Shown one piece after another: positions 1 through 14,249 of a stretch of 64,000 bases of DNA. The notes beneath the pieces are model-generated. The model did not search any database, was not told the origin of the DNA, and worked only from the letters and a program-made list of their open reading frames with translations. The translations under genes and the position numbers were made by a program. This stretch comes from Bacteroidota bacterium (GTDB lineage: Bacteria > Eisenbacteria > RBG-16-71-46 > SZUA-252): positions 9,743-73,742 of the forward strand of contig JBLMWD010000027.1 of the NCBI GenBank assembly GCA_050257045.1, given 5' to 3'. Each line of letters begins with the position of its first letter. Position 1 is the stretch's first letter.

Positions 1-406
1 CGGCGCCGCCGGCGGCGAGGAGCCGGGAGGTGTGCTCCATCGCCCAGCCGATCCCGACGAAGCCGGTGAACAGGGAGCCTTCCATCGGCACGCGCCCCGC
101 CGCTTCGATCGCGGCGTCCAGGCATTCCCGGGCGAGCGCGGCTTCACCGGGCGCACCGCTTCGCGCGAGGTAGGCGTGCAGCACCGCCTGTCCCGCCGTT
201 CCCGACGCGAGGGACGCATCCACGGCGGCGCGCATGTCCGGAGCCGCGGCCTCCGGCGCCCATCCGGGAAGTGGATGCGCGAAACGGGCCGTGATTCCGC
301 GGAGGGCTTCTTCGGCGCGCGCGCGGAGGGCCGCGTCCGCGATGGGTCGCCACCCGGAAGGTGGCGCGGCCGGAGCCGAAAGAGAGGTGTCGCTCGCCGG
401 TTCCAT
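1..406 (-). CDS. Partial (5' part only; continues past the left edge) LanC-like lanthionine cyclase family protein
   Basis: Minus-strand frame starting at ATG ~406 translates as MEPASDTSLSAPAAPPSGWRPIADAALRARAEEALRGI...GTAGQAVLHAYLARS...SLFTGFVGIGWAMEH. The repeated G-x-x-G-(I/A) helical-repeat motifs (SLFTGFVGIGW) resemble the N-terminal repeats of LanC/LanC-like proteins. It is not in the ORF track because it runs off the edge. GC3 is moderately high. The call rests on motif resemblance only. Confidence 0.35.
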   Translation of the reverse strand, partial: MEPASDTSLSAPAAPPSGWRPIADAALRARAEEALRGITARFAHPLPGWAPEAAAPDMRAAVDASLASGTAGQAVLHAYLARSGAPGEAALARECLDAAIEAAGRVPMEGSLFTGFVGIGWAMEHTSRLLAAGGA

Positions 407-437
407 CGGCGAATGAGGGTAGCACGCGCGGAAGGAA

Positions 438-467
438 TTGACGCGGCCCGGGCGCTGCTCCTAGATT
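438..467 (+). promoter_or_regulatory. Putative sigma70-like promoter for the small peptide gene
   Basis: TTGACG (438-443), an ~18-nt spacer, then TAGATT (462-467). This sits ~85 nt upstream of the AGGAGG SD, in the divergent intergenic region between the LanC-like start and the peptide ORF. Confidence 0.3.
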
Positions 468-560
468 CCACCCCACGCCGCGTCGGCGCCGGCACCCCAC
501 GGCGCCGCATCGCGGCCCGCTCGCAGTCGGGGGTCGGGCTCGAACCAGGAGGAGAACGCC

Positions 561-695
561 GTGAAGACTCCGAAGAAGCTCGTCTTGGCGAAGGAAACGG
601 TGATGCGGCTCCAGTCCCCGGCCAAGAAGGAAGCCGGCCCGGGCGGCACGCATCCGACGTACACGGCGACCACGATCCAGACCGGCTGCTGCTGA
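561..695 (+). CDS. Small ORF (44 aa) missing from the track: candidate RiPP/lanthipeptide-type precursor peptide
   Basis: AGGAGG at 547-552, an 8-nt spacer, then GTG at 561. Translation: VKTPKKLVLAKETVMRLQSPAKKEAGPGGTHPTYTATTIQTGCC*. GC3 is ~90% (40/44 codons end in G/C), which indicates coding. The leader resembles the K-K-L-x-L-x-K-E-T-I-x-x-L class of GG-motif leaders common in FCB-group bacteriocin/RiPP precursors. The PGG is followed by a 15-aa Thr-rich core ending in Cys-Cys. A strong hairpin terminator follows directly. Confidence 0.55.
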   Translation: MKTPKKLVLAKETVMRLQSPAKKEAGPGGTHPTYTATTIQTGCC

Positions 696-708
696 TCGGG
701 AGGGGTCT

Positions 709-745
709 GGTTTTCGAGGCCTCGGGTGCTTCGATCACCCGGGGC
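709..745 (+). terminator. Intrinsic terminator after the small peptide ORF (it could also serve the convergent subtilase gene)
   Basis: GAGGCCTCGGGTG-cttcgat-CACCCGGGGCCTC forms a 13-bp stem (one G-U pair) with a 7-nt loop, followed by the T-rich GTCGTTTATTCC. Confidence 0.5.
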
Positions 746-753
746 CTCGTCGT

Positions 754-2661
754 TTATTCCAGAAGGACGACCCGGAGCGACGCCTCCCCGTCGCGCGTCC
801 GCGCGCGGGCGAAGTAGATCCCCGATCCGACCGGCACGCCCCGGTCGTCGGTGCCGTTCCAGCGGAGCGGGTGGACGCCGGGTCCTACCACGCCGTCCAC
901 CAGGCGCGCGACGCGGCGCCCGCGCACGTCGAACACCGAGACGTCGGCCGTGCCGCCGCGTGGGAGCGAGAGCTCGAGCGCCACGCGCCCGGGGCCCGGC
1001 ACGCGCGACAGCGGCCGGAACCGGAACGTCACGCCCGGAGCGTCGCCCACCCCGGTCAGCGTGTTCACCACGAGCTGGACCGAAACGCCGGTGCTCGGCG
1101 TGACCGGATCGTTGCTCGTGATCGGGAGCGTCGCGTTGTACGTCCCGTCCAGGAGCCCCGTGGCGTCGACATGCACTACGACCGCGGCGCCGGAGCCCGC
1201 CGCGACGTTCCCCGTGTCGGGCGACGCAGAGAGCCAGGCCGCGGGCGCGGGCGTCGGGAGCCGGAAGTCGAGCCGCCCCCGCCCGGTGTTGGACAGGGTG
1301 AGCGTCGTGTCGCGGATCCATCCCGGCGCGACGTAGACGGTGAACGCGGCCGGCGTGGGCGCGACCACGGGGACGTTCCAGAGCGCCTTGTAGGCGTTCA
1401 GCCGCCCGCCGGTCACCGTGATGCCGTTCATCGAGGCGATCGGGTCGACGTTGTCGAGAATGAGCTGGCGGACCACCGCGATCGAAGCGAGTGGGTAGTG
1501 GCCCATCGCGAGCGCCGCCGTTCCGGCGACGTGTGGGCAGGCCATCGAGGTCCCCGTCAGGAGCTGGTACTGGTTCCCCGGCTTGCAGGAGTAGATGTTC
1601 AACCCGGGGGCGCCTAAGTGCACGGTCACGAGCCCGTAGTTGGTGAGCGTGGGCCGGCCGTCGCGCCCATCCGTCGACGTGACGTTGATCATGTTCGGCG
1701 CGAGATAGGACGGCGGCCAGAACGGGACGCTGTCGATGTTCCAGCCGTTGTTCCCGGCGGCGAAGATCATGAGCTGCCCGGCCGCGCCCGCTGCGTTGAT
1801 CGCGTCGAGCATCGCCTGCCCGCCGGACATGTTCCCCCACGAGTTGTTCGTGAGCCGGCAGCCCACGAGGACCGAGTAGCCGATCGCGGAGATGGCGTCG
1901 GCCTCGGTCCCCACGCCCGAGGCGTTCATGAACTTGATCGCGACCATCCGGCACTGCCAGTTCACGCCGGTCACGCCGACGGTATTGTTCCCCACGGCTC
2001 CGATCGTCCCGGCGACGTGGGTGCCGTGATAGCCGTCGTCCATCGGATCGCCGTCGTGGTTCACGAAGTCGTAGCCATGCACGTCGTCGACGTAGCCGTT
2101 CTTGTCGTCGTCCTTGCCGTTCCCCGGTGTCTCCCCGGGATTGGTCCAGACGTTCGCGGCGAGATCGGGATGCGTGTAGTCGATGCCGGTGTCGATGACG
2201 CCGATCTTGAAGTTGGGATCGCCGGTGTAGAGGTCCCACGCCTGCGTCGCCTTGATGTCGCATCCGGCGTAGCCGCCCCCCTGGCCGGTGTTCAGCATCC
2301 CCCAGAGCTGGCTGAAGCTCGGGTCGTTGGGGACGACCTGCGCCTCCTGGGCGTAGACGTAGTGGTTCGGCTGGGCGTAGGCGACGTCCGGATCGCGCGT
2401 GAGGCGCGCGATCGCCTCCTCCGCGGACTGGCCGGAGACGCGGACGTGGTCGGCTCCGATCAAGTCGAGGCGGCCGACGCGCGTGAGGCCGGGGATCGCC
2501 GCCTCGATGGCCGCGCGGCGCGACTCGCTCACGCCGGGGCGGTACTTCACGATAAGCTCGCCCGGGACCGAGTCGGCGGCCGCGGCAACAGAAACGGAAG
2601 CGCTGATCGCCGCGAAGGCAGCGATCAGCGCGACGAGGAGACAAGTCCGGCGCGAGGTCAT
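754..2661 (-). CDS. Secreted subtilisin-like serine protease (peptidase S8) with a T9SS-type C-terminal sorting domain
   Basis: The track ORF 754..2952 is trimmed to the ATG at 2661 (MTSRRTCLLVALIAAFAAISASV is a signal peptide; GGAGG lies upstream). D/H/S motifs: VIDTGID, HGTHVAGTIGA, GTSMACPHVAG. The C-terminal ~80 aa (VSVFDVRGRRVARLVDGVVGPGVHPLRWNGTDDRGVPVGSGIYFARA...LRVVLLE) resemble the Por_Secre_tail / FlgD-Ig-like T9SS CTD. Confidence 0.85.
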   Translation of the reverse strand: MTSRRTCLLVALIAAFAAISASVSVAAAADSVPGELIVKYRPGVSESRRAAIEAAIPGLTRVGRLDLIGADHVRVSGQSAEEAIARLTRDPDVAYAQPNHYVYAQEAQVVPNDPSFSQLWGMLNTGQGGGYAGCDIKATQAWDLYTGDPNFKIGVIDTGIDYTHPDLAANVWTNPGETPGNGKDDDKNGYVDDVHGYDFVNHDGDPMDDGYHGTHVAGTIGAVGNNTVGVTGVNWQCRMVAIKFMNASGVGTEADAISAIGYSVLVGCRLTNNSWGNMSGGQAMLDAINAAGAAGQLMIFAAGNNGWNIDSVPFWPPSYLAPNMINVTSTDGRDGRPTLTNYGLVTVHLGAPGLNIYSCKPGNQYQLLTGTSMACPHVAGTAALAMGHYPLASIAVVRQLILDNVDPIASMNGITVTGGRLNAYKALWNVPVVAPTPAAFTVYVAPGWIRDTTLTLSNTGRGRLDFRLPTPAPAAWLSASPDTGNVAAGSGAAVVVHVDATGLLDGTYNATLPITSNDPVTPSTGVSVQLVVNTLTGVGDAPGVTFRFRPLSRVPGPGRVALELSLPRGGTADVSVFDVRGRRVARLVDGVVGPGVHPLRWNGTDDRGVPVGSGIYFARARTRDGEASLRVVLLE

Positions 2662-2678
2662 GCCGGCCTCCTTTTCGG

Positions 2679-3179
2679 TTATGCGGGTTTGGAGAGGAGG
2701 AGCCGCCTCGTGTAGGGGATCAGCCCTCCCGCGTCGATGATCGCCTGGCGCGCCTTGGGAAGCGGCACCACGGGAAAGGAGGCTCCGGTCGTCTTGTTCA
2801 CGACCCCGCCGTCGCGGAAGGCGAGGATGTCGCCCTCCTTGGCCTCGAGGGTCGGGCAGATCACCATCCGGAGCCCGAGGTTGATCGCGTTCTGGAGGAA
2901 GATGCGCGCGAAGTTCCGCGCCACCACGGTGACATCGTAGCCCTTGAGGCACGAGGCCGCCTGTTCACGCGAGGAGCCGCAGCCGAAGTTCTTTCCCGCG
3001 ACGAGCACGCTCCCCGCGGGCACGTCGCCCGCGCGCAGCGCGCGATTGAAGGCGACGTCGTCGGCGAAGGCGTACTGCGGCGTCTCGCTGGGCAGCACCG
3101 TCGCCATGAAGCGGCCCGGATAGATGATGTCGGTCGACACGTCGTCGCCGACGGCCTTGACCACGCGTCCTTCGATCAT
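2679..3179 (-). CDS. leuD: 3-isopropylmalate/homoaconitate dehydratase small subunit (LeuD-type, short archaeal-like form)
   Basis: MIEGRVVKAVGDDVSTDIIYPGRF...; the start ATG overlaps the leuC stop (ATGA). 166 aa. Confidence 0.8.
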   Translation of the reverse strand: MIEGRVVKAVGDDVSTDIIYPGRFMATVLPSETPQYAFADDVAFNRALRAGDVPAGSVLVAGKNFGCGSSREQAASCLKGYDVTVVARNFARIFLQNAINLGLRMVICPTLEAKEGDILAFRDGGVVNKTTGASFPVVPLPKARQAIIDAGGLIPYTRRLLLSKPA

Positions 3180-4468
3180 GACCGGGCCTCCCTCGGATCG
3201 GTGATCACGCCGGCGATCGCGCTCGCCGCGGCCACCGCGGGCGAGCAGAGATAGACCTCGCCGGCCGGGTTCCCCATCCGGCCCTTGAAGTTCCGGTTCG
3301 TCGTCGAGAGGGCGACCTCGCCGTCGCCGAGGGCCCCCTGGTGCACGCCGAGACACGGGCCGCACCCCGGGTTGCAGACGACCGCGCCCGCCTCCATGAG
3401 ATCGCGGAGATAACCCCGGTCGAGCGCCTGGTGGAAGATGCGCCACGAGGCCGGGAAGACGAGCATCCGGGTCCCCGCCGCCACCTTCCGGCCGCGGAGC
3501 GTGCGCGCCGCGACCTCGAGGTCGTCGAGCCGTCCGTTCGTGCACGAGCCGATCACCACCTGCTGGATGCGGGTGCCTCTCACCGCGGCGACCGGTTTCA
3601 CGTTGTCGACGGTGTGCGGACAGGCGACCTGCGGCGCGAGCATGGCCGCGTCGATGTGGATCACCTGCTCGTAGGCGGCGTCGGGATCCGGCCCGAAGAT
3701 CTCGATCCGTTCCTTCACGCCGGCCTCCTCGCGGAGGTAGCGGAGCGTCTCGGCGTCCGGCGGCACCACGCCGGCCGTCGCGCCCGCCTCGACCGCCATG
3801 TTGCAGAGGACGAGCCGCCCCGACGTCGGCATGTTGCGGATGGCCGAGCCGTGGAACTCGAGGACCTTGAAGTTCGCCCCCTCGGCCGAGATCGTCCCGA
3901 TCAGGTGGAGGATCAGGTCCTTCGCGTAGACTCCGTCGGGGAGCACGCCGTTCACCACGACCTGGATCGTGCCCGGCGCCTCGACGTTCAGGATGCGGCC
4001 GAGCGCCCAGACCGAGGCCATCTCGGTCGCGCCGATGCCGAAGGCGAACGCACCCAGCGCCCCGTGCGTCGTGGTGTGGCTGTCGGTGCCGACGACGACG
4101 GCGCCCGGACGGACGTAGCCGTTCTCGGGAAGGATCTGATGGCAGATGCCGCCCACGTCGCCGCGCACGTCGTGGAACTTCACGATGCCGGCCGCCCCCA
4201 CGAATTCCCGCACCTTCTTCTGGTTGCTCGCCGTCTTCGCCGACTCCGCCGGAACGCGGTGGTCGAAGACGATCGCGATCTTGGAGGGATCCCAGACCCG
4301 GGCCTCGCGGCCGGTGTCGCGGAAGATCTCCTGGAACTGGTTCAGGACGAGCGCCGCGTTCTCGTGCGACATCGCGAGGTCGACCGGCGGCTCGACCACC
4401 TCGCCGACCGCGACTTCCCGCCGCCCGAGAGCGCGCGCGAGGAGCTTCTGCACGTAGGTCTGGCCCAT
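3176..4468 (-). CDS. leuC: 3-isopropylmalate dehydratase large subunit (aconitase family)
   Basis: MGQTYVQKLLARALGR...; Fe-S ligand motifs VIGSCTNGR and CNPGCGPCLG. The track ORF is trimmed to the ATG at 4468. Confidence 0.85.
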   Translation of the reverse strand: MGQTYVQKLLARALGRREVAVGEVVEPPVDLAMSHENAALVLNQFQEIFRDTGREARVWDPSKIAIVFDHRVPAESAKTASNQKKVREFVGAAGIVKFHDVRGDVGGICHQILPENGYVRPGAVVVGTDSHTTTHGALGAFAFGIGATEMASVWALGRILNVEAPGTIQVVVNGVLPDGVYAKDLILHLIGTISAEGANFKVLEFHGSAIRNMPTSGRLVLCNMAVEAGATAGVVPPDAETLRYLREEAGVKERIEIFGPDPDAAYEQVIHIDAAMLAPQVACPHTVDNVKPVAAVRGTRIQQVVIGSCTNGRLDDLEVAARTLRGRKVAAGTRMLVFPASWRIFHQALDRGYLRDLMEAGAVVCNPGCGPCLGVHQGALGDGEVALSTTNRNFKGRMGNPAGEVYLCSPAVAAASAIAGVITDPREARS

Positions 4469-4472
4469 GGCT

Positions 4473-5693
4473 CTACACGACTCCTTTCGCCCGGAGCGCG
4501 CACACGGCGTCGCCGTCCACGCCGACTTCGGCCAGCACCTCGGCCGTGTGCGCCGAGAGGCGCGGCGGCGGGCCCGTGATCGCACCCGGGGTCTTTTCGA
4601 ACTTGGCGGTGAGGTCGAAGAGCGGGACCGTCCCGATCCCCTCGACCGGCACGTCCTTCAGCGTCTCGCGGTGGCGGATCTGGGCTTGCCGGAGGGCGTC
4701 GCCGAGCGCGAGGATCGCGCCGGTCGGCACGTCGCGCGCGTTCAGCCGCTCCACCCAGACCGCCGTGGGACATTGCGTGAGGCGCTCCTCGAGGATCGGC
4801 GTGAGCTCCTTCCGGTTCTTCTTCCGGACGTCCCGCTTCTGGAACCGCGGATCGGCCTTCAGGTCCGCGAGCCCGAGCTCCTCGCAAAGCGCCTCCCACT
4901 GCTCCTGCTTGTTCGCGGCGATGTTGACGTAGCCGTCCCGCGTCCGGAACGTCCCCGAGGGGGCGGCGGTGAAGTTGTCGTTCCCCATGAGGACCGGCTG
5001 CTGGCCGCCGATCAGGAGATTCGCCGCCACCCAGCCCATGAGCGGCATGATCGAGTCGAGCATCGCGACGTCGATGAACTGCCCCTCGCCGGTGCGCTCG
5101 CGGTGATAGAGCGCGGCGAGGATGGCGAAGGCGGCGTTCAGCCCCCCAACCGTGTCGCAGACCGGGAAACCGGCGCGGAGCGGGTTCAGGCGCTCGTCGC
5201 CGTTCACGGCCATGACCCCCGAGAGGCCCTGGATGATCTGGTCGTAGGCGGGCTTCAGCGCGTCGGGTCCGGTGTGGCCGAAGCCCGAGATCGCGCAGTA
5301 GATGAGCCGCGGGTTGTCGGCCGCGAGCGTCGCGTAGCCGAGGCCCATCCGTTCCATCACGTCGGGGCGGAAGTTCTCGACCAGGACGTCGGACTTGGCG
5401 GCGAGCTTCCGGAAGATCTCCTTCCCCTCGGGCGTCTTCATGTTGAGGGTGACGGAGCGCTTGTTCGCATTCTGCGCGAGGAACGAGGTCCCCATGAGCT
5501 GCTCGTTCAGCTCCGGAACGATCCCGAGCTTGCGGGCGAGGTCGCCGTCCTTGGGGTTCTCGATCTTCACCACGTCCGCCCCGAGGAGGGCGAGGTGGAG
5601 GGTGGCGAAGGGTCCGGCGAGGACGTTGGTGAGGTCGAGGACGCGGATCCCCTGGAGCAGGGTGCGCGCGCCGGAGATCTCCGGTTGGCTCAC
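4473..5693 (-). CDS. Family III CoA-transferase (CaiB/BaiF family)
   Basis: RTLLQGIRVLDLTNVLAGPFAT...FRPDVMERMGLGY... The only in-frame start is GTG ~5693, overlapping the upstream gene stop (GTGA). ~406 aa. Confidence 0.75.
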   Translation of the reverse strand: MSQPEISGARTLLQGIRVLDLTNVLAGPFATLHLALLGADVVKIENPKDGDLARKLGIVPELNEQLMGTSFLAQNANKRSVTLNMKTPEGKEIFRKLAAKSDVLVENFRPDVMERMGLGYATLAADNPRLIYCAISGFGHTGPDALKPAYDQIIQGLSGVMAVNGDERLNPLRAGFPVCDTVGGLNAAFAILAALYHRERTGEGQFIDVAMLDSIMPLMGWVAANLLIGGQQPVLMGNDNFTAAPSGTFRTRDGYVNIAANKQEQWEALCEELGLADLKADPRFQKRDVRKKNRKELTPILEERLTQCPTAVWVERLNARDVPTGAILALGDALRQAQIRHRETLKDVPVEGIGTVPLFDLTAKFEKTPGAITGPPPRLSAHTAEVLAEVGVDGDAVCALRAKGVV

Positions 5694-6601
5694 GCCGGCA
5701 CTTTCGTGGGAAGCGGCCCCGTCTTGTGGACGAACCCCGGCAGGTCGCGGCCGAAGTGCGCGGACACCTCGCGGGCCACCTCGATCAGCCGCTCGAGATC
5801 CACGTCCGGGCGCTTCCCCTCGAGATGGAGGGCATGAACGAAGTCCTCGGTCGCGACGTTCCCGGCCGCCACCTTCGTGAAGGGGCAGCCGCCGAGCCCG
5901 CCGAACGACGTCTCGAAGGAGGTGACCCCGGCGCGCATGGCGGCGTAGATGTTCGCCATCCCCATGCCGTAGGTGTTGTGGAAGTGGCAGGTGGCCTCGA
6001 TCGTGGGGTCGATGGCGAAGACGGCGTTGAAGAGCCGCTCCACCTGTCCGGGACGGCCGTGCCCCGCCGTGTCGGCGAGGCTGATCGAGCGGAACCCCGC
6101 GCCGACGTACGCGCGGACCATGTCGAGCACCCGGTCCTCGGGGATCGCCCCCTCGAAGCCGCAGCCGAACGCCGACTGCACCGAGAGCTGCACCTTCCGG
6201 CCCGCCTCGACGGCGCGCTTCGCCGTGGCGATGATCCGCGTCACCGCCTCCTCGCTCCCCATGCCGGTGTTGGCGAGGCTGTGCGTCTCGCTCGCCGAAG
6301 CGCCCATGCAGAAGAGCTCGACGCCGCAAGCGAGCCCTCGATCGAGCCCCTTCTCGTTCAGCACGAGGCCCGAGAGGACGACTCCCGGCGCCTTCCCCTC
6401 GGTGAGGCGCCGGAAGAGTTTGTCGGTGTCGGCCATCTGCGGAACCTTGTCCGGGTGGACGAAGGAGCCCACCTGCACGATGTCCACGCCCGAGGCCATC
6501 ACGTTGCGGATCCAGGCCTCTTTCTTCGCCGTCGAGACGATCTGCTTCTCCATCTGGAGTCCGTCGCGCGGCCCGACCTCGTGCAGGACGATGCGGTTCA
6601 T
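5690..6601 (-). CDS. HMG-CoA lyase family protein (hydroxymethylglutaryl-CoA lyase or citramalyl-CoA lyase-like)
   Basis: MNRIVLHEVGPRDGLQMEKQIVSTAKKE...VPQMAD...GLGGCPF...GNVATEDFV closely parallels the HMGCL signatures EVGPRDGLQNEK / VPQMGD / GLGGCPY..GNLATEDLV. The RDGLQ motif (not the RDGEQ of LeuA/CimA) indicates an acyl-CoA lyase rather than a synthase. Confidence 0.8.
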   Translation of the reverse strand: MNRIVLHEVGPRDGLQMEKQIVSTAKKEAWIRNVMASGVDIVQVGSFVHPDKVPQMADTDKLFRRLTEGKAPGVVLSGLVLNEKGLDRGLACGVELFCMGASASETHSLANTGMGSEEAVTRIIATAKRAVEAGRKVQLSVQSAFGCGFEGAIPEDRVLDMVRAYVGAGFRSISLADTAGHGRPGQVERLFNAVFAIDPTIEATCHFHNTYGMGMANIYAAMRAGVTSFETSFGGLGGCPFTKVAAGNVATEDFVHALHLEGKRPDVDLERLIEVAREVSAHFGRDLPGFVHKTGPLPTKVPA

Positions 6602-6612
6602 GGCGGAGCCCT

Positions 6613-7779
6613 CTACGTTCGCGTCACACCCGCGCCGCGGGTGATGGATGGAGAGGCGGCGCGACACGTTTCCCCGACGGCGCGCGCCATGTCGAGCGTA
6701 CCGGCCGCCCCTCCCATGTCGTAGGTCCGGACCTTCCCTTCCTTCACGACGGACGCGACCGCCGCCTCGATGGCGTCAGCCTTCGCGCCCTCGCCGAGCC
6801 AGTCGAGCATCATCCTGGCGGCGAGGATCGTCGCGATCGGGTTGGCCTTGTACTTCCCCGCGTGCTTCGGCGCCGACCCGTGCGTCGGCTCGAAGACCGC
6901 GACGGTGCCGCCGATGTTGCCGGAGCAGCCGAAGCCGAGGCCGCCGACCATCTGCGCGCAGAGATCCGAGATGATGTCGCCGTACAGGTTGGGTGCCACG
7001 ATCACGTCGTAGTTGAAGGGATTCTTGAGCAGCCACATCGTCATCGCGTCGATGTTCGCGTCGTCCATCGCGATGCCGGGATACTCCGCCGCGACGCGGC
7101 GGGCCTCCTCGAGGAAGAGCCCGTCGGTGGCGCGGACGACGTTTGCCTTGTGGACGACGGTGACCTTCTTCCGGCCGAACTTCTTCGCGAACTCGAACGC
7201 GGCGCGGACGATCCGCTCCGACCCGTGCTTCGTGTTCACCTTGCAGGAGATCGCGTATTCGTCCCCCTTCAGGCCGGCAAACGCCTTGAAGGGCGGTGAA
7301 AGCGCCGTGAGCGTGTCGCGCAGGGCGTCGGGGACTTTCGGGAACTCGACGCCGGCGTAGAGGTCCTCCGTGTTCTCGCGGAAGACGACGAGATCGATCC
7401 CTTCCTTGAAGTTGAGGGGATTCCCGGGGAACGCCTTGCAGGGGCGGAGGCAGACGTAGAGATCGAAGAGCTGCCGCATGCGGACGATCGGGGAACGGTA
7501 GACGAGGCTCTTCCCCTGGAGCTCGGGAACGAGCTCCCGCTCCGCTTCCTTGAGCGGCTTCGACGTGATCGCGCCGAACAGCGCGGCGTCCACGTTCCGG
7601 AGGAGCTCGATGGTGCGCGGAGGCAACGCGTCCCCCTCGCGGCGCCAGAACTCCCAGCCGATGTCGCCGGGAACGTATTCCGCGTCGAATCCGACGGCGT
7701 CGAGGACGAGGCGGGCAGCCTCCATCACCTCGACCCCGATCCCATCTCCCGGCAGCCAGCCGATCTTGTATCGTGCCAT
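6613..7779 (-). CDS. icd: Isocitrate/isopropylmalate dehydrogenase family protein, closest to prokaryotic NADP-isocitrate dehydrogenase (Icd type)
   Basis: MARYKIGWLPGDGIGVEV...DLYVCLRPCKAFPGNP...VVFRENTEDLYAGVEF...HKANVVRATDGLF...NLYGDIISDL...GNIG parallels E. coli Icd (DLYICLRP..., IFRENSEDIYAGIEW, HKGNIMKFTEGAF). 388 aa. It could alternatively be a homoisocitrate or 3-IPM dehydrogenase. Confidence 0.65.
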   Translation of the reverse strand: MARYKIGWLPGDGIGVEVMEAARLVLDAVGFDAEYVPGDIGWEFWRREGDALPPRTIELLRNVDAALFGAITSKPLKEAERELVPELQGKSLVYRSPIVRMRQLFDLYVCLRPCKAFPGNPLNFKEGIDLVVFRENTEDLYAGVEFPKVPDALRDTLTALSPPFKAFAGLKGDEYAISCKVNTKHGSERIVRAAFEFAKKFGRKKVTVVHKANVVRATDGLFLEEARRVAAEYPGIAMDDANIDAMTMWLLKNPFNYDVIVAPNLYGDIISDLCAQMVGGLGFGCSGNIGGTVAVFEPTHGSAPKHAGKYKANPIATILAARMMLDWLGEGAKADAIEAAVASVVKEGKVRTYDMGGAAGTLDMARAVGETCRAASPSITRGAGVTRT

Positions 7780-7873
7780 GCCGATTGCCCTCCCCGGCCA
7801 CTGCCGATCGTAAGGCCCGGGCACGGCCGGGGTCGCCCCCTACCGAGGGCTACTTACCGGGTGGCCCGAGGGA

Positions 7874-8401
7874 TCATCCTCCTGCGGAAACGGTCTCGGC
7901 CGGCCGCGGCGCCTCCTTCGGCGCCTCCACCGTGCGCGGAACGCCTCCGGCCAGCGTGCAGACGAAGCGCATGATCTTGTGGCCCGGGTCGGCGGTCGGA
8001 TCGAACATGCAGGGGCACCCCCCGGCGATCACGGTGATCCCCCGCTCGCGGCCGTAGGCCGCGGCCTCCTTCGAGACGCTCCCCGCCCCCATCGAGCGGT
8101 GCATCCAGACCTCCCGCACCCCGAGATCGGCGCATTCCTTCATCGCGGTCATGGCGGTCTCGGGCCGGGTGCCGATCACCACGGCCTCGACGCCCCCCGG
8201 AATCGACTTGAGATCGGGATAGGCGCGGTCGCCCGCGACTTTCTCGGCGTTCGGGTTGACGGCGAAAACCTGGTAGCCCCGCTCGCGCAGCCGCTGGTAG
8301 ACGGCGTTGGCCGCGTGGGGCTGGGGATTCCTCGAAACGCCGGTCACGGCGATGCGCTTGTGAGCCAGAAACTTCGCGGCGGCTTCTCGAATCGTGCTCA
8401 T
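7874..8401 (-). CDS. CoA-binding domain protein (YccU-like)
   Basis: HKRIAVTGVSRNPQPHAANAVYQRLRERGYQVFAVNPN...; Rossmann-like CoA-binding fold signature. Confidence 0.7.
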   Translation of the reverse strand: MSTIREAAAKFLAHKRIAVTGVSRNPQPHAANAVYQRLRERGYQVFAVNPNAEKVAGDRAYPDLKSIPGGVEAVVIGTRPETAMTAMKECADLGVREVWMHRSMGAGSVSKEAAAYGRERGITVIAGGCPCMFDPTADPGHKIMRFVCTLAGGVPRTVEAPKEAPRPAETVSAGG

Positions 8402-8438
8402 GGCAGCTCTCCTGTGCGCCCGCGGGCGCCCACGACGG

Positions 8439-9002
8439 TCAGGGCTCCGGCGCGCTCGCGACGGACCATGCCCCGGTGGCCTGGTTCAGCTTGTGGCAGT
8501 AGGTGCACTCGCCCTGGAACTCGGTCATGTAGTGGTTCTCGTCGGCGCCGACGAGGTGGATCCGGTGGATCAGGCGCGCGAAGGGAGGCGCCTTCTTCGA
8601 GGCGGCGCCGTGGCACTTGACGCATCCCGCCGGGACGTCCTTGAGCGCGGCGCTCACGGCCGGATGCTTCCCCTTGAGCGTCACGGCGGCGGGCGCAGCG
8701 GCCTGGGCCTTTGCGAGAAGTGCCGGGTCGACCTTCACGGTCCAGCCCTTCATGAGGGTCGAGAGCCGCTGGTCCATGTGCCGCTCGGGAAGATTCACGT
8801 GGCAGCTCACGCATCCGTTCGGGAACTCGTCGGGGGCGTTGATGCCGGGGATCTTCCGCGCGGGCGGGAGCGGCGGCGGCGAGCCGGGGCTAGGCGTGGC
8901 CACCACCGATTTCGCGGTGCTGTCGGCCGGCTGGGCGTGAGCGCTGGAGGCGAAGGCGAGAAGTCCGAGAAGGAAGATGGACACGGTGGCGAGTGGGCGC
9001 AT
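8439..9002 (-). CDS. Secreted triheme c-type cytochrome
   Basis: Signal peptide MRPLATVSIFLLGLLAFASSAHA. Three CxxCH motifs: CVSCH, CVKCH, CTYCH. A GGAGGG RBS precedes the ATG. Confidence 0.75.
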   Translation of the reverse strand: MRPLATVSIFLLGLLAFASSAHAQPADSTAKSVVATPSPGSPPPLPPARKIPGINAPDEFPNGCVSCHVNLPERHMDQRLSTLMKGWTVKVDPALLAKAQAAAPAAVTLKGKHPAVSAALKDVPAGCVKCHGAASKKAPPFARLIHRIHLVGADENHYMTEFQGECTYCHKLNQATGAWSVASAPEP

Positions 9003-9075
9003 GGCCGTCCCTCCTCTGGGGGATGGAGCTTCAGGAGGACGTCACGCTAGCAGGGGACGGAAGCGGCCCGAATGG

Positions 9076-9085
9076 TACCTAGGTA
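9076..9085. promoter_or_regulatory. Perfect 10-bp palindrome TACCTAGGTA in the cytochrome c upstream region: candidate operator
   Basis: An AT-rich perfect palindrome in a 70%-GC genome, ~75 nt upstream of the cytochrome c start. It sits next to a GC hairpin (9095-9113, CCGGCGGC-gaa-GCCGCCGG) immediately after the ABC-2 permease stop. Confidence 0.25.
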
Positions 9086-9117
9086 TACCCGCCGCCGGCG
9101 GCGAAGCCGCCGGGGCG

Positions 9118-10251
9118 TCACAAAGTGCGCTTGAAGAGCGTCGAGGCGAGCACGAGCATCACGCCCGCGAAGAGCATGAGGATCAGGAAGTCGGGGAGCA
9201 CGGCCTGGAAGCCGACCCCCTTCAGGAGGAGGTTCCGGAGGGCGTGGACGGCATAGCGCATCGGGTTCACCCGGGAGATCGCCTGGAGCCACGCCGGGTA
9301 GCTCTCCGTCGGATAGAGCGCGCCGCTCGGGAAGAAGGTGACGACGTTCAGGATGCCGAAGAGGGCGCGCGGCGTCATCGGATTGGAGACGCGCGCCATG
9401 AGCGTGAACATGAACAGGACGAGCCCGAGGCCGAGGAGGAGGATCGTGAACTCCACCATGAGGAGCGTCGGGAGCCCGCCGATGAGCGGGAGCTGCGCGA
9501 TCACGATCGAAGAAAGGGTGACGACCGTGCCCATGGAGAGGGCGAGCGTCGTGGCCGAGAGCGTGAGCCCCGCCACCAGGTCGAGCGAGGTGAGGGGCGT
9601 CACGAAGTACCCCTCGTGGATCCCGCGCGCGCGGTCGTCCACGAGGATGATCCCGCCCGCCACCATCGCGACGAAGAAGAGGGCGAGCGCGATCACCCCG
9701 GGCACGAGATACTGCATGTAGTTCTTGTGACCGTAGACGTCGACCCGCTCGACCGTGATCCCGACGTCGGGGCGCTCGACCATTCCCGCCACGCGGAGGT
9801 CGCCGATCGCGCGGCGCATCTCCCCCTCGACCGTGTTCGACGAGGTGGCGTCGGTGTTGTCGAGCGCGAGCCCCAGCTCCGCCTTCTCCCCGCGCGCGAA
9901 GTCCTCGCTGAAATTGGGCGGGACGATCACGACGGCCCGGTATTCCCCCTGACGGAGGCGGTTCACCGCCTCGCCCGCCTCGGGCTCGTCCCGGAGATCG
10001 AAGAGCTGCCGGGTCGTCTCGAGGGTCATGATCTGCCTCCGGACCGCGGCGGCGGCCGCGCCCTCGTCCTCGACGACGAGCGCGACGGGAAGGTGGTGGA
10101 GATCCCCGCCCATCGACTTCCCGAGGATGAGGAGGTAGATGATCGGCATCATCACCATCGGGATCACGAGCTGGATGTTGCGTCGGAAGCGGCGGAGGTC
10201 GCGCTCGGCGACCGCGAGGACGCGGCTCGTGCTGAAGGGAAGCGAGAACAC
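9118..10251 (-). CDS. ABC-2 type transporter permease
   Basis: Six predicted TM helices with ABC-2 family architecture, directly downstream of an ABC ATPase. Confidence 0.8.
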   Translation of the reverse strand: MFSLPFSTSRVLAVAERDLRRFRRNIQLVIPMVMMPIIYLLILGKSMGGDLHHLPVALVVEDEGAAAAAVRRQIMTLETTRQLFDLRDEPEAGEAVNRLRQGEYRAVVIVPPNFSEDFARGEKAELGLALDNTDATSSNTVEGEMRRAIGDLRVAGMVERPDVGITVERVDVYGHKNYMQYLVPGVIALALFFVAMVAGGIILVDDRARGIHEGYFVTPLTSLDLVAGLTLSATTLALSMGTVVTLSSIVIAQLPLIGGLPTLLMVEFTILLLGLGLVLFMFTLMARVSNPMTPRALFGILNVVTFFPSGALYPTESYPAWLQAISRVNPMRYAVHALRNLLLKGVGFQAVLPDFLILMLFAGVMLVLASTLFKRTL

Positions 10252-10257
10252 CGCGGG

Positions 10258-11277
10258 CTACCTCATGATCGACGGGAGGGGGCGCACGTATTCGGTGGAC
10301 ACGGTGTCGCGCAGGCCCCGCCCGGTGTAGTGGATGAAGACGTCGTCGAGCGTCGGCTCCTGCACCGAGACGCTCTTCACCTTGTTGCCGACCTTGCGCG
10401 TCGCCTCGATGATCGCCTCGAGCGGCACCACCTCCGACGTGAGCACGAGCCGCACGGCGTGATCGCTGTCGATCGCCGCGTCCGAGACGTCGGGGAGCGC
10501 CTTGAGCGCGTCGCGAAGCGGCTCCCCCACTTCGCGGAAGAATTCGGCGAGCACCGCGTCCTGCCCCGGCACCGAAGCCTTGAGCTCCTTGGGGGTCCCG
10601 AGCGCGGCGATCTTCCCGTGGTCGATGATCGCGAGGCGGTCGCAGAGGCGGTCGGCTTCGTCCATGTAGTGCGTGCAGATCAGGATCGACAGATTCCCCT
10701 CGGCTCGGAGCTTTTCGAGCAGCTCCCAGATCACGCGCCGGCTCTGCGGGTCGAGTCCGGTGGTCGGCTCGTCGAGGAAGAAGACGCGGGGCCGGTGGAC
10801 CAGGCCGCGTGCGATCTCGAGCCGCCGCCGCATCCCGCCCGAGTAGGTCCCGGCGGCCTGGTCCTTCCACTCCCAGAGACCCACGGCGTGGAGGAGCTCG
10901 GTCGAGCGCTCCCGCCGCTCGTGCCGCGACATGCCGTAGAACTTTCCGTAGATGTCGAGGCTCTCCCACGCGGAGAGGTCGGAGTCGACGGTGTTCGCCT
11001 GCGGGATCACGCCGATCGAGCGCCGGACCGAACCCGTGCGCCGCGCCACGTCGAACCCCATGACGAGCGCGCGTCCCGAGGTCGGGCGGATCAAGGTCGT
11101 GAGCATGCGCACGAGGGTGCTCTTCCCCGCCCCGTTCGGGCCGAGGATCCCGAAGATCTCGTTCTGCGCCACGCTGAAGGTGAGGTCGTCGTCGGCCGTG
11201 AAATCGCCGAACTTCTTGGTGAGGTGCTCGACGACGATCGCGGGGACGTCCGGATTCTCGGGTTCGGGCGCGATCAC
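10258..11277 (-). CDS. ABC transporter ATP-binding protein
   Basis: Walker A GPNGAGKST, signature YSGGMRRRLEIA, Walker B VFFLDEPTTGLD. Confidence 0.85.
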   Translation of the reverse strand: MIAPEPENPDVPAIVVEHLTKKFGDFTADDDLTFSVAQNEIFGILGPNGAGKSTLVRMLTTLIRPTSGRALVMGFDVARRTGSVRRSIGVIPQANTVDSDLSAWESLDIYGKFYGMSRHERRERSTELLHAVGLWEWKDQAAGTYSGGMRRRLEIARGLVHRPRVFFLDEPTTGLDPQSRRVIWELLEKLRAEGNLSILICTHYMDEADRLCDRLAIIDHGKIAALGTPKELKASVPGQDAVLAEFFREVGEPLRDALKALPDVSDAAIDSDHAVRLVLTSEVVPLEAIIEATRKVGNKVKSVSVQEPTLDDVFIHYTGRGLRDTVSTEYVRPLPSIMR

Positions 11278-12221
11278 GGCGTCCGCTCCGCCACGGGGCG
11301 CGACGAGGCGGGGGACGCGGAGGGGACCTCGATCGTGACCTCGGCCGTCATGCCGTCCTTGAGGAGCCCGTCCGGGTTCGGGACGCGCGCCACGACGTCG
11401 AACGTCCGGATGTCGCGCCGCTGGGCGCCCCAGTCCTTCCGCGTCGCGAAGTCCCCCGAGGCCGAGACGTCGGTCACGACTCCCGGGAAGGTGCGCTTGT
11501 CGAACGTGTAGACCTTGACCGAGACCGGATCGCCGAGGCGCACGGCGCCGATCCGCGTCTCGTCCACGGCGGCGTGCACCTTCAACGTGTCGAGGTTCGC
11601 GATCGTGACGACCGCCGTCCCCACGGTGACCGTCTCGCCCGGGTGGTGGATCTTCTCCGTGACCTGGCCCGCCTGCGGCGCGGTGACGACGGCATAGGAG
11701 CGCGTGAGCTTCGCCTGGGCGAGGCTGCTCTCGGCCTGGTGGACCTGCGCCTCGGCCGCGTCGACCTGCGCCCGGCCGACCTGCGCCGCCGCGATCGAGG
11801 CGTCGAGCTGCTGCTGCGTGCCGGCGCCCTCGGCCGCGAGGGAGCGCATGCGCGCGAGGTCGCGGGCCGCCTTCTCGCGGTTCGCGCGCGCCTGGCCCAG
11901 CGCGGCGCGGGCCGATTCGAGGGCCGCCGCGGCGCTCTGCACCGCCACGTCGAAGTCCTGCGGGTCGAGCGTCGCCACGGCCTGCCCCGGGCGGACGCGG
12001 TCTCCCTCGTTCACCGGGACGGTCGCGATCTTCCCGCCCACCTTGAAGCCGAGGCTCACCTGCACGGCCTCGATGGTCCCGGTCGTGACCACGTTCCCGC
12101 CCTGATACCCCTCCTTGCGGTGGGTGTAGCTCCAGATCGCGTAGGCGGCCGCGGCGATCACGACCAGGAGGACGATCCCCCGGATCCGCCGGGCGCGCGA
12201 TGGAGGCGCTTTCTCGGCCAT
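11274..12221 (-). CDS. HlyD-family membrane fusion (periplasmic adaptor) protein
   Basis: N-terminal TM helix, coiled-coil region and beta-barrel/lipoyl-like motifs; its start overlaps the ABC ATPase. Confidence 0.8.
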   Translation of the reverse strand: MAEKAPPSRARRIRGIVLLVVIAAAAYAIWSYTHRKEGYQGGNVVTTGTIEAVQVSLGFKVGGKIATVPVNEGDRVRPGQAVATLDPQDFDVAVQSAAAALESARAALGQARANREKAARDLARMRSLAAEGAGTQQQLDASIAAAQVGRAQVDAAEAQVHQAESSLAQAKLTRSYAVVTAPQAGQVTEKIHHPGETVTVGTAVVTIANLDTLKVHAAVDETRIGAVRLGDPVSVKVYTFDKRTFPGVVTDVSASGDFATRKDWGAQRRDIRTFDVVARVPNPDGLLKDGMTAEVTIEVPSASPASSRPVAERTP

Positions 12222-12225
12222 GTCG

Positions 12226-13566
12226 TTACGGTCCCCCCGTGCTGGTGGCCGGTCCGATCGCGCGCTCGAGCGCGGCGCGCGCGGACCAGGTGTCGAGGAG
12301 CGACTGCGCCTCCTGCGCCCGCGCGTCGGCGAGCGCGCTCTCCGCGTCGCGCACCTGCGAGGCGGTGGTCGTGCCGCCGCGGTAGCCGGCCTCGGCCAGG
12401 TGGAGCGCCTCGCGCGCCGCGGTCACGCGCGAGGAGTCCGTCTGCCAGATCGCGAGCGAGACGCGGAGATCGGAGAGCGAGCTGTCGACGTTGCGGCGCA
12501 CGTCGAGCTCCGCCTCGCGCCGCCGAGCCGCGATCGCCTCGTGGTCGGCGCGCAGCTCGCCCGCGCGGGCGGAGGCGAGGCCGCCGTCGAAGATCGGCCA
12601 GCTGACATCGACGCCGGCCCAGAGGTTGTAGGTCTTGAGGCCGGGGTCCTGAAAGTTGAAGTATTCCTCTTGGCGATTCGGGCCGAGGTATTGTGCCGTG
12701 CCGCTCACGCCGAGGGCGGGCCCTCGCTGCGCGAGGGCAGCACGCGTCCGCTGCTCGTTCTCGCGGAGCTGCTCGTCGTAGCTGCGGAGCTCCGGGCGGT
12801 TCCGGAGGGCGGCCGCCTCCGCGGCGGCCGGATCGGGAATGGCCGAATCGGGCGGACCCGGCGGGGCGAGCGCTTCCGTGGAGTCGATGGTCGCGCCGAT
12901 CACGGTTTCGAGCTCCACGCGCGCCGTGCGGACCGCTTCGTGGGCCCGGATCAGGGCCGACTCGCGCTGGAAGAGATCGACGCGCGCCTGGAGCGAGTCG
13001 AGCCGCTGCGCCACGCCGGCGCGCACCTGGGCCGCCGCGAGGCGCCGGCGGGCCCCGGCCGCCTGCACCGCCTCCCCGGCGGCGTCCTCGAGCCGGCGCG
13101 CCGCGATCGCGCGGTAGAAGGCCTGGGAGACGCGCAGGGCGAGATCGGCGTCGGCCTCCGCGCGGCTCTCTTGCTGGGCGCGGCGGGCGGCTTCGGCGGC
13201 CCGCACGAGCGCCCGGTCGCGTCCGCTCGCGTCGATCGGGAGCCGCGCCTGGGCGCGCATGTCGATGTTCGTCGCGCTCCCCGTCTTCACGACCGCGGGA
13301 CCGGGCGCGCCCGGGATCGGGATGATGAACTTCTGCGACTCGCTCCGCTGGATCGCGCTCCCGTCGAGCCGGAACGTCGGCGCGAGCGCGGCGCGCGCCT
13401 CGCGGATCGCCTGCTCCGCGCGCGAGACGCCCGCCTCGGAGATCCGGATCGAGGGGGCGTTCTTGCGCGCGATGGCGAGGCACTCCTCGAGCGTGAGGGC
13501 GCGAGCGGTCGCCGAGGCCACTGCCACGGCCGCCGTGAGCGCGAGCAGGAAGGCGACCCGCCTCAC
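12226..13566 (-). CDS. TolC-family outer membrane efflux protein
   Basis: Signal peptide, two tandem repeats of the OEP coiled-coil/beta region, and the typical LTLEECLAIA start. Confidence 0.8.
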   Translation of the reverse strand: MRRVAFLLALTAAVAVASATARALTLEECLAIARKNAPSIRISEAGVSRAEQAIREARAALAPTFRLDGSAIQRSESQKFIIPIPGAPGPAVVKTGSATNIDMRAQARLPIDASGRDRALVRAAEAARRAQQESRAEADADLALRVSQAFYRAIAARRLEDAAGEAVQAAGARRRLAAAQVRAGVAQRLDSLQARVDLFQRESALIRAHEAVRTARVELETVIGATIDSTEALAPPGPPDSAIPDPAAAEAAALRNRPELRSYDEQLRENEQRTRAALAQRGPALGVSGTAQYLGPNRQEEYFNFQDPGLKTYNLWAGVDVSWPIFDGGLASARAGELRADHEAIAARRREAELDVRRNVDSSLSDLRVSLAIWQTDSSRVTAAREALHLAEAGYRGGTTTASQVRDAESALADARAQEAQSLLDTWSARAALERAIGPATSTGGP

Positions 13567-14249
13567 GCCGCCTCCTCCGGGAGGTAGAGGTTCACGATCG
13601 CCTCCGCGCGCGCCTTCGGATCCTGGGGGAGCGGCTCGATCCGGATCACGGCGCCGGTCATCTGGTAGAACATGAGCGAGCCGTGGAACGATCGCGCCGC
13701 GATGGCGGCGTCCCGCGCCGCGCGCCGCGCGCCCCGTTCGGCAAAGGCGCGCTGGAAGAGGCGCGTCTCGAGCGCGAGCAGGCGCGAGAGGAACGTCCGG
13801 TAGAACTCCCCCGCCAGGTCGGGCACCTCGAGGACGCCGAAAAACACGACGCGGAAGAGGCGCGGGTCGTCGCGCAGCGCCGTAAGGATGCGCTCGGCGA
13901 GCCGGCCGAGCGCCTCGCGCGGGGGGAGCTTCGCAAAGCCGCGCTCCATCGTCTCGATCCGGTCCTCGAATCCGACCGACGCGAGGATCGCCCGGACGAG
14001 GTCCTCCTTCGTCGGGAAGTGCCGGAAGAGGAGCGCTTCGCTCACGCAGGCCCGCTCCGCGACGTCGCGCGTGCGCGCCCCGTGGAAGCCCCGCTCCGCG
14101 AAGACGTCGAGCGCCGCCGCGAGGATCTGCGAGCGGCGGTCGTCCGCCTTCAGTCGAAGCCTGGGGTTGAAGTCCGATGCGCCCACGGTTCCTTTCGATG
14201 CGCCGCCGCCGCGGGCGGCGCGGATAAGTGAGCGCTTACTTAATCGCAT
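13563..14249 (-). CDS. TetR-family transcriptional regulator (likely controls the downstream efflux operon)
   Basis: HTH region RRSQILAAALDVFAERGFHGARTRDVAERACVSEALLFRHF. The track ORF is trimmed to the ATG at ~14249. Its stop overlaps the tolC start. Confidence 0.75.
   Translation of the reverse strand: MRLSKRSLIRAARGGGASKGTVGASDFNPRLRLKADDRRSQILAAALDVFAERGFHGARTRDVAERACVSEALLFRHFPTKEDLVRAILASVGFEDRIETMERGFAKLPPREALGRLAERILTALRDDPRLFRVVFFGVLEVPDLAGEFYRTFLSRLLALETRLFQRAFAERGARRAARDAAIAARSFHGSLMFYQMTGAVIRIEPLPQDPKARAEAIVNLYLPEEAA
14226..14241. promoter_or_regulatory. Near-palindromic 16-mer AAGTGAGCGCTTACTT overlapping the first codons of tetR: candidate TetR autoregulatory operator
   Basis: 14/16 positions are palindromic. 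The overlapping tetR codons (CGA TTA AGT AAG CGC TCA CTT ATC) use codons that are rare in this genome, which suggests a constraint at the DNA level. A second perfect palindrome, AACGATCGTT (~14337-14346), lies just upstream of the osmC RBS. Confidence 0.3.

Follow-up and report, generated by a model that had tools for sequence, protein, structure and literature searches.

Results

We analysed a 64,000-nucleotide stretch of contig JBLMWD010000027.1 (assembly GCA_050257045.1), hereafter the window, in which five adjacent genes encode, in transcriptional order, an isocitrate dehydrogenase-like (Icd-like) enzyme, a lyase of the 3-hydroxy-3-methylglutaryl-coenzyme A (HMG-CoA) lyase family, a family III CoA-transferase and the two subunits, LeuC and LeuD, of an aconitase-family dehydratase. 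This module is a genuine conserved unit in several hundred bacterial species from soil and sediment. As far as we could find it is undescribed, and it is best read as a variant of 2-oxoacid elongation with a CoA-recycling entry. A preliminary description of the window, made from its letters alone, had already taken the five genes for one unit rather than for plain leucine biosynthesis; synteny across many phyla bears this out.

Conservation of the module

One genome per GTDB species was scanned with the lyase as query. More than 500 relatives were found, the best 80 loci were taken, and their synteny was scored by tblastn of the five window proteins. The five genes stand in identical order and on the same strand in 60 of the 80 loci; a further 12 agree with this layout as far as their truncated contigs reach, and the remaining eight depart from it. 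Median intergenic distances within the module are 19-33 nt. Proteins encoded by module genes are 60-91% identical to those of the window (medians: Icd-like 75%, lyase 66%, CoA-transferase 73%, LeuC 74%, LeuD 65%). The dehydrogenase gene, present in 71 loci, heads the module and is the one most consistently linked to it; the lyase and CoA-transferase genes adjoin each other in 76, so that the pairing pointed out in the preliminary description is a general trait.

Carriers of the module bear at least seven phylum-level record labels, among them Candidatus Eisenbacteria, Krumholzibacteriia, Gemmatimonadota, Ignavibacteriota, Bacteroidota/Chitinophagales, Fibrobacteraceae and Verrucomicrobiota. 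Labels from Acidobacteriota include Geothrix fermentans DSM 14018 (NZ_KE386810.1, around 687,926-702,819) and four more cultured Geothrix species, Holophagaceae, Thermoanaerobaculia, Vicinamibacteria and Aminicenantes.

Metagenomes were scanned as well. All lyase relatives with at least 54% identity and sufficient flanking sequence adjoin the module partners, and all those with at most 43% identity are without the module; in the loci examined, membership of the module equals membership of the lyase clade. Among plasmids (PLSDB) no lyase ortholog was found, every match being below 44% identity. Chance juxtaposition of the five genes, for which a check of neighbourhood conservation had been proposed, is excluded, because the block is colinear across the genome loci and the contrast between lyase clades in metagenomes is clean.

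Several loci depart from the common layout. One metagenomic locus (L107) has the rotated order leuC-leuD-icd-lyase, a low-G+C subgroup (L091, L101, L115) has the Icd-like, lyase and transferase genes without adjacent LeuCD, and in L020 leuC comes straight after the lyase gene, the transferase gene being absent. Four loci of Acidobacteriota/Aminicenantes type (L040, L055, L067, L074) contain the lyase and CoA-transferase pair alone. A sister lyase clade (P0122, 49% identity; L082, contig CAYVVD010000012.1) keeps the module layout with two unrelated genes inserted: the Icd-like gene and the lyase are parted by a gene for a protein with a type IX secretion system (T9SS) tail, the transferase and LeuC by one for a response regulator.

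The lyase and the CoA-transferase

All five proteins are recognized by Pfam (Iso_dh, HMGL-like, CoA_transf_3, Aconitase and Aconitase_C, in gene order; E-values 4e-12 to 3e-123). Scores with NCBIfam equivalog (function-specific) models stay below cut-off for all five; the models that they do pass are broad subfamily ones, namely PRK05692 for the lyase, PRK00402, IPMI_arch and hacA_fam for LeuC, and LEUD_arch for LeuD.

The lyase matches HMGL-like (PF00682) at 2.8e-39 and scores 267.8 bits with PRK05692 (cut-off 246). Its identity to the solved HMG-CoA lyases 2cw6, 2ftp, 1ydo and 6nds is about 40%. Comparison with these four structures and with the orthologs reveals that R41, D42, K48, D204, H233, H235, C266 (in the GGCP loop) and N275, in human numbering, are retained. 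By its motifs the window enzyme is of the lyase type and not of the synthase type, as the preliminary description had read it, since it keeps RDGLQ and the GGCP loop, whereas LeuA of E. coli carries RDGEQ, has no GGCP loop and aligns with it weakly (28% over 155 residues).

An exhaustive search over representatives of 50%-identity clusters yielded one representative at 398 bits (61% identity) and its sister at 314 bits (49%); all other full-length proteins scored at most 238 bits, with identity of at most 44%. In this search the lyase forms a discrete clade of its own. It shares the fold family and catalytic residues of HMG-CoA lyases (human HMGCL and those of P. aeruginosa, B. subtilis and Acinetobacter) and differs from them, apart from its separate clade, in two respects. 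At Glu72, the E of the DRE signature, the window protein and all 78 orthologs have Gln, in contrast to E. coli LeuA (MEVGFP) and the four solved HMG-CoA lyases, which have Glu. Its partners, moreover, are an Icd-like enzyme, a CoA-transferase and LeuCD instead of leucine-catabolic genes: no liu-type gene recurs as a neighbour in the 80 genome loci, and in 160 loci the lyase is never found beside leucine-catabolic genes. We place the enzyme in the HMG-CoA lyase family by sequence and would not class it as an HMG-CoA lyase by function, since Glu72 and the leucine-catabolic context are both lacking. The orthologs are named HMG-CoA lyase in IMG.

Outside the clade, Gln72 occurs in 34 of the 123 nearest family representatives. 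We considered it as a marker of lyase and CoA-transferase pairs and rejected it: the Gln-type proteins P0144 and P0274 have unrelated contexts. In three loci (L117, L149, L153) ordinary HMGL-family genes, 37-38% identical to the lyase, lie beside a distant family III CoA-transferase (34-35% identical), and the pairing therefore recurs outside the clade.

In NCBIfam the CoA-transferase (CoA_transf_3, 3.1e-123) comes nearest to the models for succinate-glutarate and succinyl-CoA:mesaconate CoA-transferases, without approaching the cut-off of either; its nearest solved relative is human succinate-hydroxymethylglutarate CoA-transferase (4.5e-76). Orthologs show almost no variation in the motif GFPVCDTVGG, the presumed site of the catalytic Asp. 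The protein thus groups closest with enzymes of the dicarboxylate/succinyl-CoA kind and is predicted to shift CoA between a 2-alkylmalyl-CoA and a free acid, for which succinate is the most plausible candidate. Its orthologs carry generic and contradictory names (formyl-CoA transferase, CoA:oxalate CoA-transferase, CaiB-like), and names from public sources were discarded as a functional clue, being generic or inconsistent.

The dehydratase

LeuC (Pfam Aconitase, 1.4e-100; PRK00402, 550 bits vs a cut-off of 385) conserves the Cys motifs GSCTNG and GCGPCLG. LeuD (Aconitase_C; LEUD_arch, 114 bits vs 109) conserves GSSRE, and its nearest solved relative is the small subunit of the Methanocaldococcus jannaschii isopropylmalate (IPM)/citramalate isomerase, 3vba. 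Models for either function stay below their cut-offs, both on the leucine side (LEU2, TIGR02083, 434 vs 611 bits; leud, TIGR02084, 107 vs 246) and on the homoaconitase side (HacA_Meth, 477 vs 550; HacB2, 112 vs 230).

Specificity in this dehydratase family is set by a loop of five residues in the small subunit (PMC7308503). Solved small subunits read ARYLVY (IPM/citramalate isomerase, 3vba), GPYLRT (homoaconitase, 2pkp) and GRYNLT (P. horikoshii, 1v7l) in this place. The window LeuD reads GRFMAT, and GR(F/Y)MATVLP is invariant in 62 orthologs. Because the loop reads GR(F/Y)MAT, LeuD is without the Arg that contacts the distal carboxylate in homoaconitase; this position is invariably Ala. The loop (F/Y)MAT is also unlike the classical isopropylmalate-type YLVY. 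Placing LeuCD relative to homoaconitase, as the preliminary description had proposed, gave a divided result: LeuC does not discriminate, scoring 388 bits against the large subunit of the M. jannaschii IPM/citramalate isomerase and 380 bits against that of the homoaconitase, and the LeuD loop is of neither the homoaconitase nor the classical isopropylmalate type.

The dehydrogenase

Whole-protein scores of the dehydrogenase (Iso_dh, 3.7e-90) are highest for the homoisocitrate dehydrogenase (HICDH) of Thermus and for AksF-type models. The best NCBIfam model, AksF2, gives 337 bits against a cut-off of 540; prok_nadp_idh (214 vs 567) and leuB (205 vs 353) are below cut-off too. Alignment with E. 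coli Icd and LeuB shows that the protein carries the clasp insertion of isocitrate dehydrogenases (ICDHs). The cofactor motif, HGSAPKYAGQYKVNP in most orthologs, is close to HGTAPKYAGQDKVNP of E. coli ICDH, and both features that mark an ICDH, the NADP-binding motif APKYAGQ.KVNP and the clasp insertion, are present. The LeuB and HICDH sequences compared differ in carrying an APDIAG-type motif. Use of NADP is predicted, because the cofactor motif is ICDH-like and not APDIAG.

The substrate site tells another story. The substrate helix YRSPIVRMRQ is invariant in 58 orthologs, at a place where ICDHs have RS(L/V/I)NV(A/T)(L/M)R(Q/R). Of the Ser113/Asn115 pair (numbered as in E. coli ICDH) that contacts the gamma-carboxylate of isocitrate, Ser113 is retained and Asn115 replaced by Ile (Leu in LeuB). 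Ala117 is replaced by Arg; Val116, at the position of Arg85, which serves the distal carboxylate in Thermus HICDH, is retained as well. An Ile-Val pair stands where LeuB has Leu-Leu. A segment search with this helix retrieved subfamily I NADP-ICDHs first, with the E. coli entry 1grp (RSLLV), which we read as an N115L mutant of ICDH, above the wild type. Asked whether the protein sides with Icd, HICDH or isopropylmalate dehydrogenase (IPMDH), the sequence gives a mixed answer: the dehydrogenase is a hybrid, with an ICDH-like build and cofactor motif but without the Asn115 of ICDHs.

Taken together, the LeuD loop and the dehydrogenase helix are two independent sites that argue against isocitrate or citrate as substrate. 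That the substituent carried by the substrate is alkyl rather than carboxyalkyl is likely, not proven.

Recurrent neighbours

All flanking open reading frames (ORFs) of the 80 loci were clustered. The sole recurrent neighbour set is a four-subunit 2-oxoacid:ferredoxin oxidoreductase, often accompanied by an Rrf2-family regulator, in 14 loci (L017, L023, L024, L030, L031, L039, L041, L047, L050, L062, L065, L070, L071, L077), all labelled Ignavibacteria or Bacteroidota. It is arranged either upstream and co-directional or downstream on the opposite strand. Its alpha subunit passes the NCBI subfamily model "VorB, 3-methyl-2-oxobutanoate dehydrogenase" (554 bits vs a cut-off of 399); the remaining subunits are non-discriminating, delta and beta matching 2-oxoglutarate-type models weakly. 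A VorB-type oxidoreductase fits either direction of the pathway proposed below, since it could use the 2-oxoacid product (e.g. 2-oxoisocaproate to isovaleryl-CoA) or supply or remove 2-oxoisovalerate.

Genes of the lysW/X/Y/Z type and genes for the tricarboxylic acid (TCA) cycle, amino-acid catabolism, dicarboxylate transport or regulation are not recurrent neighbours in the 80 loci, where the remaining flank genes are lineage-specific. A search for leu or icd paralogs in the window and in the flanking regions of the loci was negative.

Organization of the window

The five ORFs lie on one strand and fill exactly 2679-7779 (Table 1); their frames are unambiguous and their starts supported by orthologs. 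Genes 1 and 2 are 11 nt apart, genes 2 and 3 overlap in GTGA, genes 3 and 4 are 4 nt apart and genes 4 and 5 overlap in ATGA, in agreement with the co-directional, tightly spaced arrangement first described.

Table 1. Module genes and the region upstream of them in the window
Feature	Coordinates	Strand	Remarks
Gene 1, Icd-like, Icd/IPMDH family	7779..6613	minus	388 aa, ATG; predicted NADP-type 3-alkylmalate dehydrogenase
Gene 2, HMGL-like (DRE-TIM) acyl-CoA lyase	6601..5690	minus	303 aa, ATG; predicted 2-alkylmalyl-CoA lyase
Gene 3, family III (CaiB/Frc-type) CoA-transferase	5693..4473	minus	406 aa, GTG start
Gene 4, LeuC, type-2 (archaeal-like) aconitase-family dehydratase large subunit	4468..3176	minus	430 aa
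Gene 5, LeuD, type-2 small subunit with substrate-recognition loop	3179..2679	minus	166 aa
Intergenic region upstream of gene 1	7780..7873	minus	94 nt, GGAGGG ribosome-binding site; presumed promoter region

The upstream region is conserved among close relatives only. No sigma-70-like promoter was found upstream of gene 1, and no conserved leader peptides with amino-acid runs upstream of the operon; Rfam gave no match at the gathering threshold on nine loci, nor at E <= 1 on positions 1-12000 of the window.

The neighbours of the operon in the window are unrelated to it. Downstream, a gene for a secreted subtilase (754-2661, minus strand; Peptidase_S8, fervidolysin-like prodomain, FlgD_ig-like C-terminus) starts 17 nt past the leuD stop, with the ribosome-binding site AAGGAGG in front. 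Its adjacency was rejected as a functional clue: it is common to two related acidobacterial loci only. The region coding for the subtilase signal peptide contains a perfect inverted repeat of 14 bp (2600-2631) with a T-rich run behind it; this element looks terminator-like and may end or attenuate read-through from the operon. On the other side, 94 nt upstream and on the same strand, is a CoA_binding_2 (YccU-like) gene (7874-8401), which adjoins the operon in none of the 80 related loci. It is followed by an ORF of 187 aa that is G+C-rich at third positions and matches no Pfam family (8439-9002, minus), by an efflux-type cluster (9118-14975, minus: a TetR-domain protein, an outer-membrane efflux protein, an HlyD-family adaptor, an ABC ATPase and an ABC-2 permease) and by sigma-70, PCMT and SurE genes (15933-18922).

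NCBI labels an identical lyase (P0001) "Bacteroidota bacterium"; the nearest relatives are labelled Candidatus Eisenbacteria. Given these relatives and the G+C content of the window of about 70%, the Bacteroidota label of this metagenome-assembled genome (MAG) looks doubtful.

Discussion

Only one scheme, CoA-dependent chain elongation, would set all five enzymes on a single linear path. The lyase would condense acetyl-CoA with a 2-oxoacid to give a 2-alkylmalyl-CoA, reversibly. The CoA-transferase would then exchange the CoA with an acid, most plausibly succinate, possibly acetate, to yield 2-alkylmalate and the corresponding acyl-CoA. The LeuCD-type dehydratase would interconvert 2-alkylmalate and 3-alkylmalate, and the dehydrogenase would convert 3-alkylmalate and NADP+ to the 2-oxoacid longer by one carbon, CO2 and NADPH. 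Likely substrates are pyruvate, leading to 2-oxobutyrate via citramalate, and/or 2-oxoisovalerate, leading to 2-oxoisocaproate via isopropylmalate. What the sequences themselves show is gene anatomy, conservation, family membership and active-site residues. For this mechanism run as elongation, whose reactions, substrate, CoA acceptor and direction we all infer, we see slightly less than an even chance; if the same mechanism in the reverse direction is counted in, it becomes reasonably probable. The preliminary description had raised a CoA-dependent elongation too, in a citramalate or a homocitrate version. The idea as such survives, and its homocitrate variant is disfavoured by the absence of an Arg from the LeuD loop and by Val in place of Arg85 of Thermus HICDH.

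Since the lyase and the transferase would replace a LeuA/CimA-type synthase, the thioester would be passed on and not hydrolysed. The free energy released in synthase reactions is comparable to that of thioester hydrolysis. With no thioester hydrolysed, the lyase and transferase pair should by our estimate work near equilibrium, which makes reversal conceivable, and the whole module should be mildly exergonic in the elongation direction. Elongation would presumably be the usual direction, pulled by decarboxylation.

The scheme shares much with established routes. The LeuABCD, CimA-LeuCD-LeuB, AksADEF and homocitrate pathways also employ a two-subunit aconitase-family isomerase followed by a beta-decarboxylating dehydrogenase of the Icd/IPMDH family, and their condensing enzyme comes from the same DRE-TIM (HMGL-like, PF00682) superfamily. 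The module differs from them in having an RDGLQ/GGCP lyase and a CoA-transferase in place of the synthase, whereby the thioester would be conserved, in its NADP-type dehydrogenase and in a LeuD loop that is neither YLVY nor YLRT. The (R)-citramalyl-CoA lyase and D-citramalate CoA-transferase of Chloroflexus resemble our pair, an HMGL-family lyase adjoining a family III CoA-transferase, and act on a 2-hydroxy-2-alkyl dicarboxylate. That couple, however, is described as cleaving citramalate and is not known to be joined in an operon to LeuCD and an Icd-like enzyme; no NCBIfam model for it matched the module proteins, and the ortholog names in IMG do not use its KEGG Orthology (KO) numbers. Citrate lyase (CitDEF) and the citryl-CoA synthetase/lyase system of the reductive TCA cycle likewise combine acyl transfer onto a hydroxy-polycarboxylate with retro-Claisen cleavage, without net hydrolysis of a thioester. 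They belong to the CitE and citrate-synthase-like families, unrelated to DRE-TIM, and the specificity residues of the module argue against citrate and isocitrate.

Full-text literature searches returned neither a paper on this set of genes nor any use of isopropylmalyl-CoA or homocitryl-CoA as a term. An "indirect" synthesis of citramalate by (R)-citramalyl-CoA lyase and succinyl-CoA:citramalate CoA-transferase is raised as a theoretical possibility in PMC8307300. According to PMC6338057, an Ignavibacteria-related MAG has the leucine genes from 2-isopropylmalate onward (leuBCD), no leuA and no valine/isoleucine synthesis. Such a pattern is what the operon would produce, if that MAG carries it.

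Several observations weigh against elongation as we propose it. Enzymes of the HMG-CoA lyase family run in the cleavage direction, the Chloroflexus couple, the only characterised lyase and CoA-transferase couple that we know of, runs as cleavage too, and the occurrence of the pair alone in four loci would fit a stand-alone catabolic role. The NADP-type motif of the dehydrogenase is unlike that of the LeuB and HICDH sequences compared. LeuC is equidistant from isopropylmalate isomerase and homoaconitase, and the specificity residues of LeuD and the dehydrogenase are suggestive, not decisive. Thermus HICDH also has Ile at position "115", and the new Arg (E. coli 117), two residues beyond it, could reach the distal carboxylate of homoisocitrate; the case against homoisocitrate is weaker on account of both.

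Because reversal is thermodynamically conceivable, we keep as the main rival the same enzymes working backwards in a catabolic shortening of 2-oxoacids, which we nevertheless regard as unlikely. A 2-oxoacid derived from an amino acid (2-oxoisocaproate from leucine, or 2-oxobutyrate) would undergo reductive carboxylation with NADPH to a 3-alkylmalate, which would be isomerised, would receive CoA from succinyl-CoA and would be cleaved to acetyl-CoA and a shorter 2-oxoacid, to be oxidised by the neighbouring ferredoxin oxidoreductase. The NADP-type motif would suit the reductive step, but may simply descend from an ICDH-like ancestor. Couples of lyase and CoA-transferase are typically catabolic, here too the pair is found alone, and the VorB-type oxidoreductase adjoins the operon in 14 loci; amino-acid catabolic genes, on the other hand, do not recur beside it. 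By our estimate the overall free-energy change is near zero when no thioester is hydrolysed, yet reductive carboxylation requires high CO2 and a high NADPH/NADP ratio, and the module is also found in MAGs labelled Gemmatimonas and Vicinamibacteria. Both groups are aerobes. In favour of the reverse route, relatives that degrade branched-chain amino acids and lack valine/isoleucine synthesis and leuA are reported to keep leuBCD (PMC6338057).

The remaining explanations change the substrate or deny the pathway. A tricarboxylate version, which we consider improbable, would lead either from oxaloacetate and acetyl-CoA through citryl-CoA, citrate and isocitrate to 2-oxoglutarate, as an energy-conserving bypass of citrate synthase, aconitase and ICDH or as its reductive reverse, or from 2-oxoglutarate through homocitrate to 2-oxoadipate, as in the aminoadipate route to lysine. 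The ICDH-like build of the dehydrogenase (clasp insertion, Ser113, NADP motif), its best whole-protein matches to homoisocitrate dehydrogenases, the closeness of the CoA-transferase to succinate-glutarate-type enzymes and the weak 2-oxoglutarate-type matches of the delta and beta oxidoreductase subunits speak for it, and citryl-CoA is one substituent apart from HMG-CoA. Its substrates, however, sit badly with the invariable Ile at Asn115, where the N115L-type E. coli entry matches the segment better than the wild type, with Val at the position of the HICDH Arg85 and with the missing homoaconitase Arg in LeuD. Nor do lysW/X/Y/Z-type or other TCA genes recur beside the operon, and a complete TCA cycle is reported for the related Ignavibacteria-type MAG in PMC6338057. 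A small chance, of similar size, goes to catabolism of a free branched C5/C6 dicarboxylate (citraconate, citramalate, mesaconate or an itaconate-like acid), in which LeuCD would hydrate the unsaturated acid, the CoA-transferase would activate the hydroxy acid, and the lyase would release acetyl-CoA and pyruvate. The pair found alone in four loci agrees with this, as does the pairing logic of the Chloroflexus enzymes, for which PMC8307300 gives Enzyme Commission (EC) and KO numbers. The dehydrogenase would be confined to a side branch, and so a gene present in 71 of the 80 loci is left without a role, a difficulty that weakens this alternative as put forward in the preliminary description; a dicarboxylate transporter or regulator is not a recurrent neighbour, and the very high conservation across phyla resembles core metabolism more than use of a niche substrate. 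Least credible by far is that leuB and leuCD for leucine synthesis stand by chance beside a leucine-catabolic HMG-CoA lyase and an unrelated CoA-transferase. Automated names such as HMG-CoA lyase and formyl-CoA transferase point that way, and the lyase does pass the NCBI HMG-CoA lyase subfamily cut-off, but synteny contradicts it, colinearity being kept across phyla. Translational coupling, the clade-specific sites (Glu72Gln, Asn115Ile with the NADP motif, the unusual LeuD loop) and the failure of LeuB, LeuC and LeuD to reach any equivalog cut-off likewise tell against it.

If CoA-dependent elongation holds, the module may, more speculatively, be an undescribed, thioester-conserving and reversible replacement of LeuA/CimA-type synthases in several hundred species of the Fibrobacterota-Chlorobiota-Bacteroidota (FCB) group, Acidobacteriota, Gemmatimonadota and Verrucomicrobiota. 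It would then be the "missing leuA" of genomes scored as leucine/isoleucine auxotrophs and, together with the adjacent VorB-type oxidoreductase, would feed isovaleryl-CoA or propionyl-CoA primers into branched- and odd-chain lipids, with one ATP equivalent saved per elongation. We hold this extended proposal to be doubtful as a whole. Cultured Geothrix species, which carry the operon, allow the mechanism to be tested directly.

Were the mechanism true, it would constitute a widespread variant of the textbook 2-oxoacid elongation that underlies leucine, isoleucine, lysine and coenzyme B synthesis, with its irreversible, energy-wasting synthase step replaced. Several hundred gene sets now named "HMG-CoA lyase", "formyl-CoA transferase" and "isocitrate dehydrogenase" would receive a function, and metabolic engineers an ATP-saving, reversible elongation module. 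Predictions of auxotrophy and of carbon flow would change for abundant, mostly uncultured phyla of soil and sediment.

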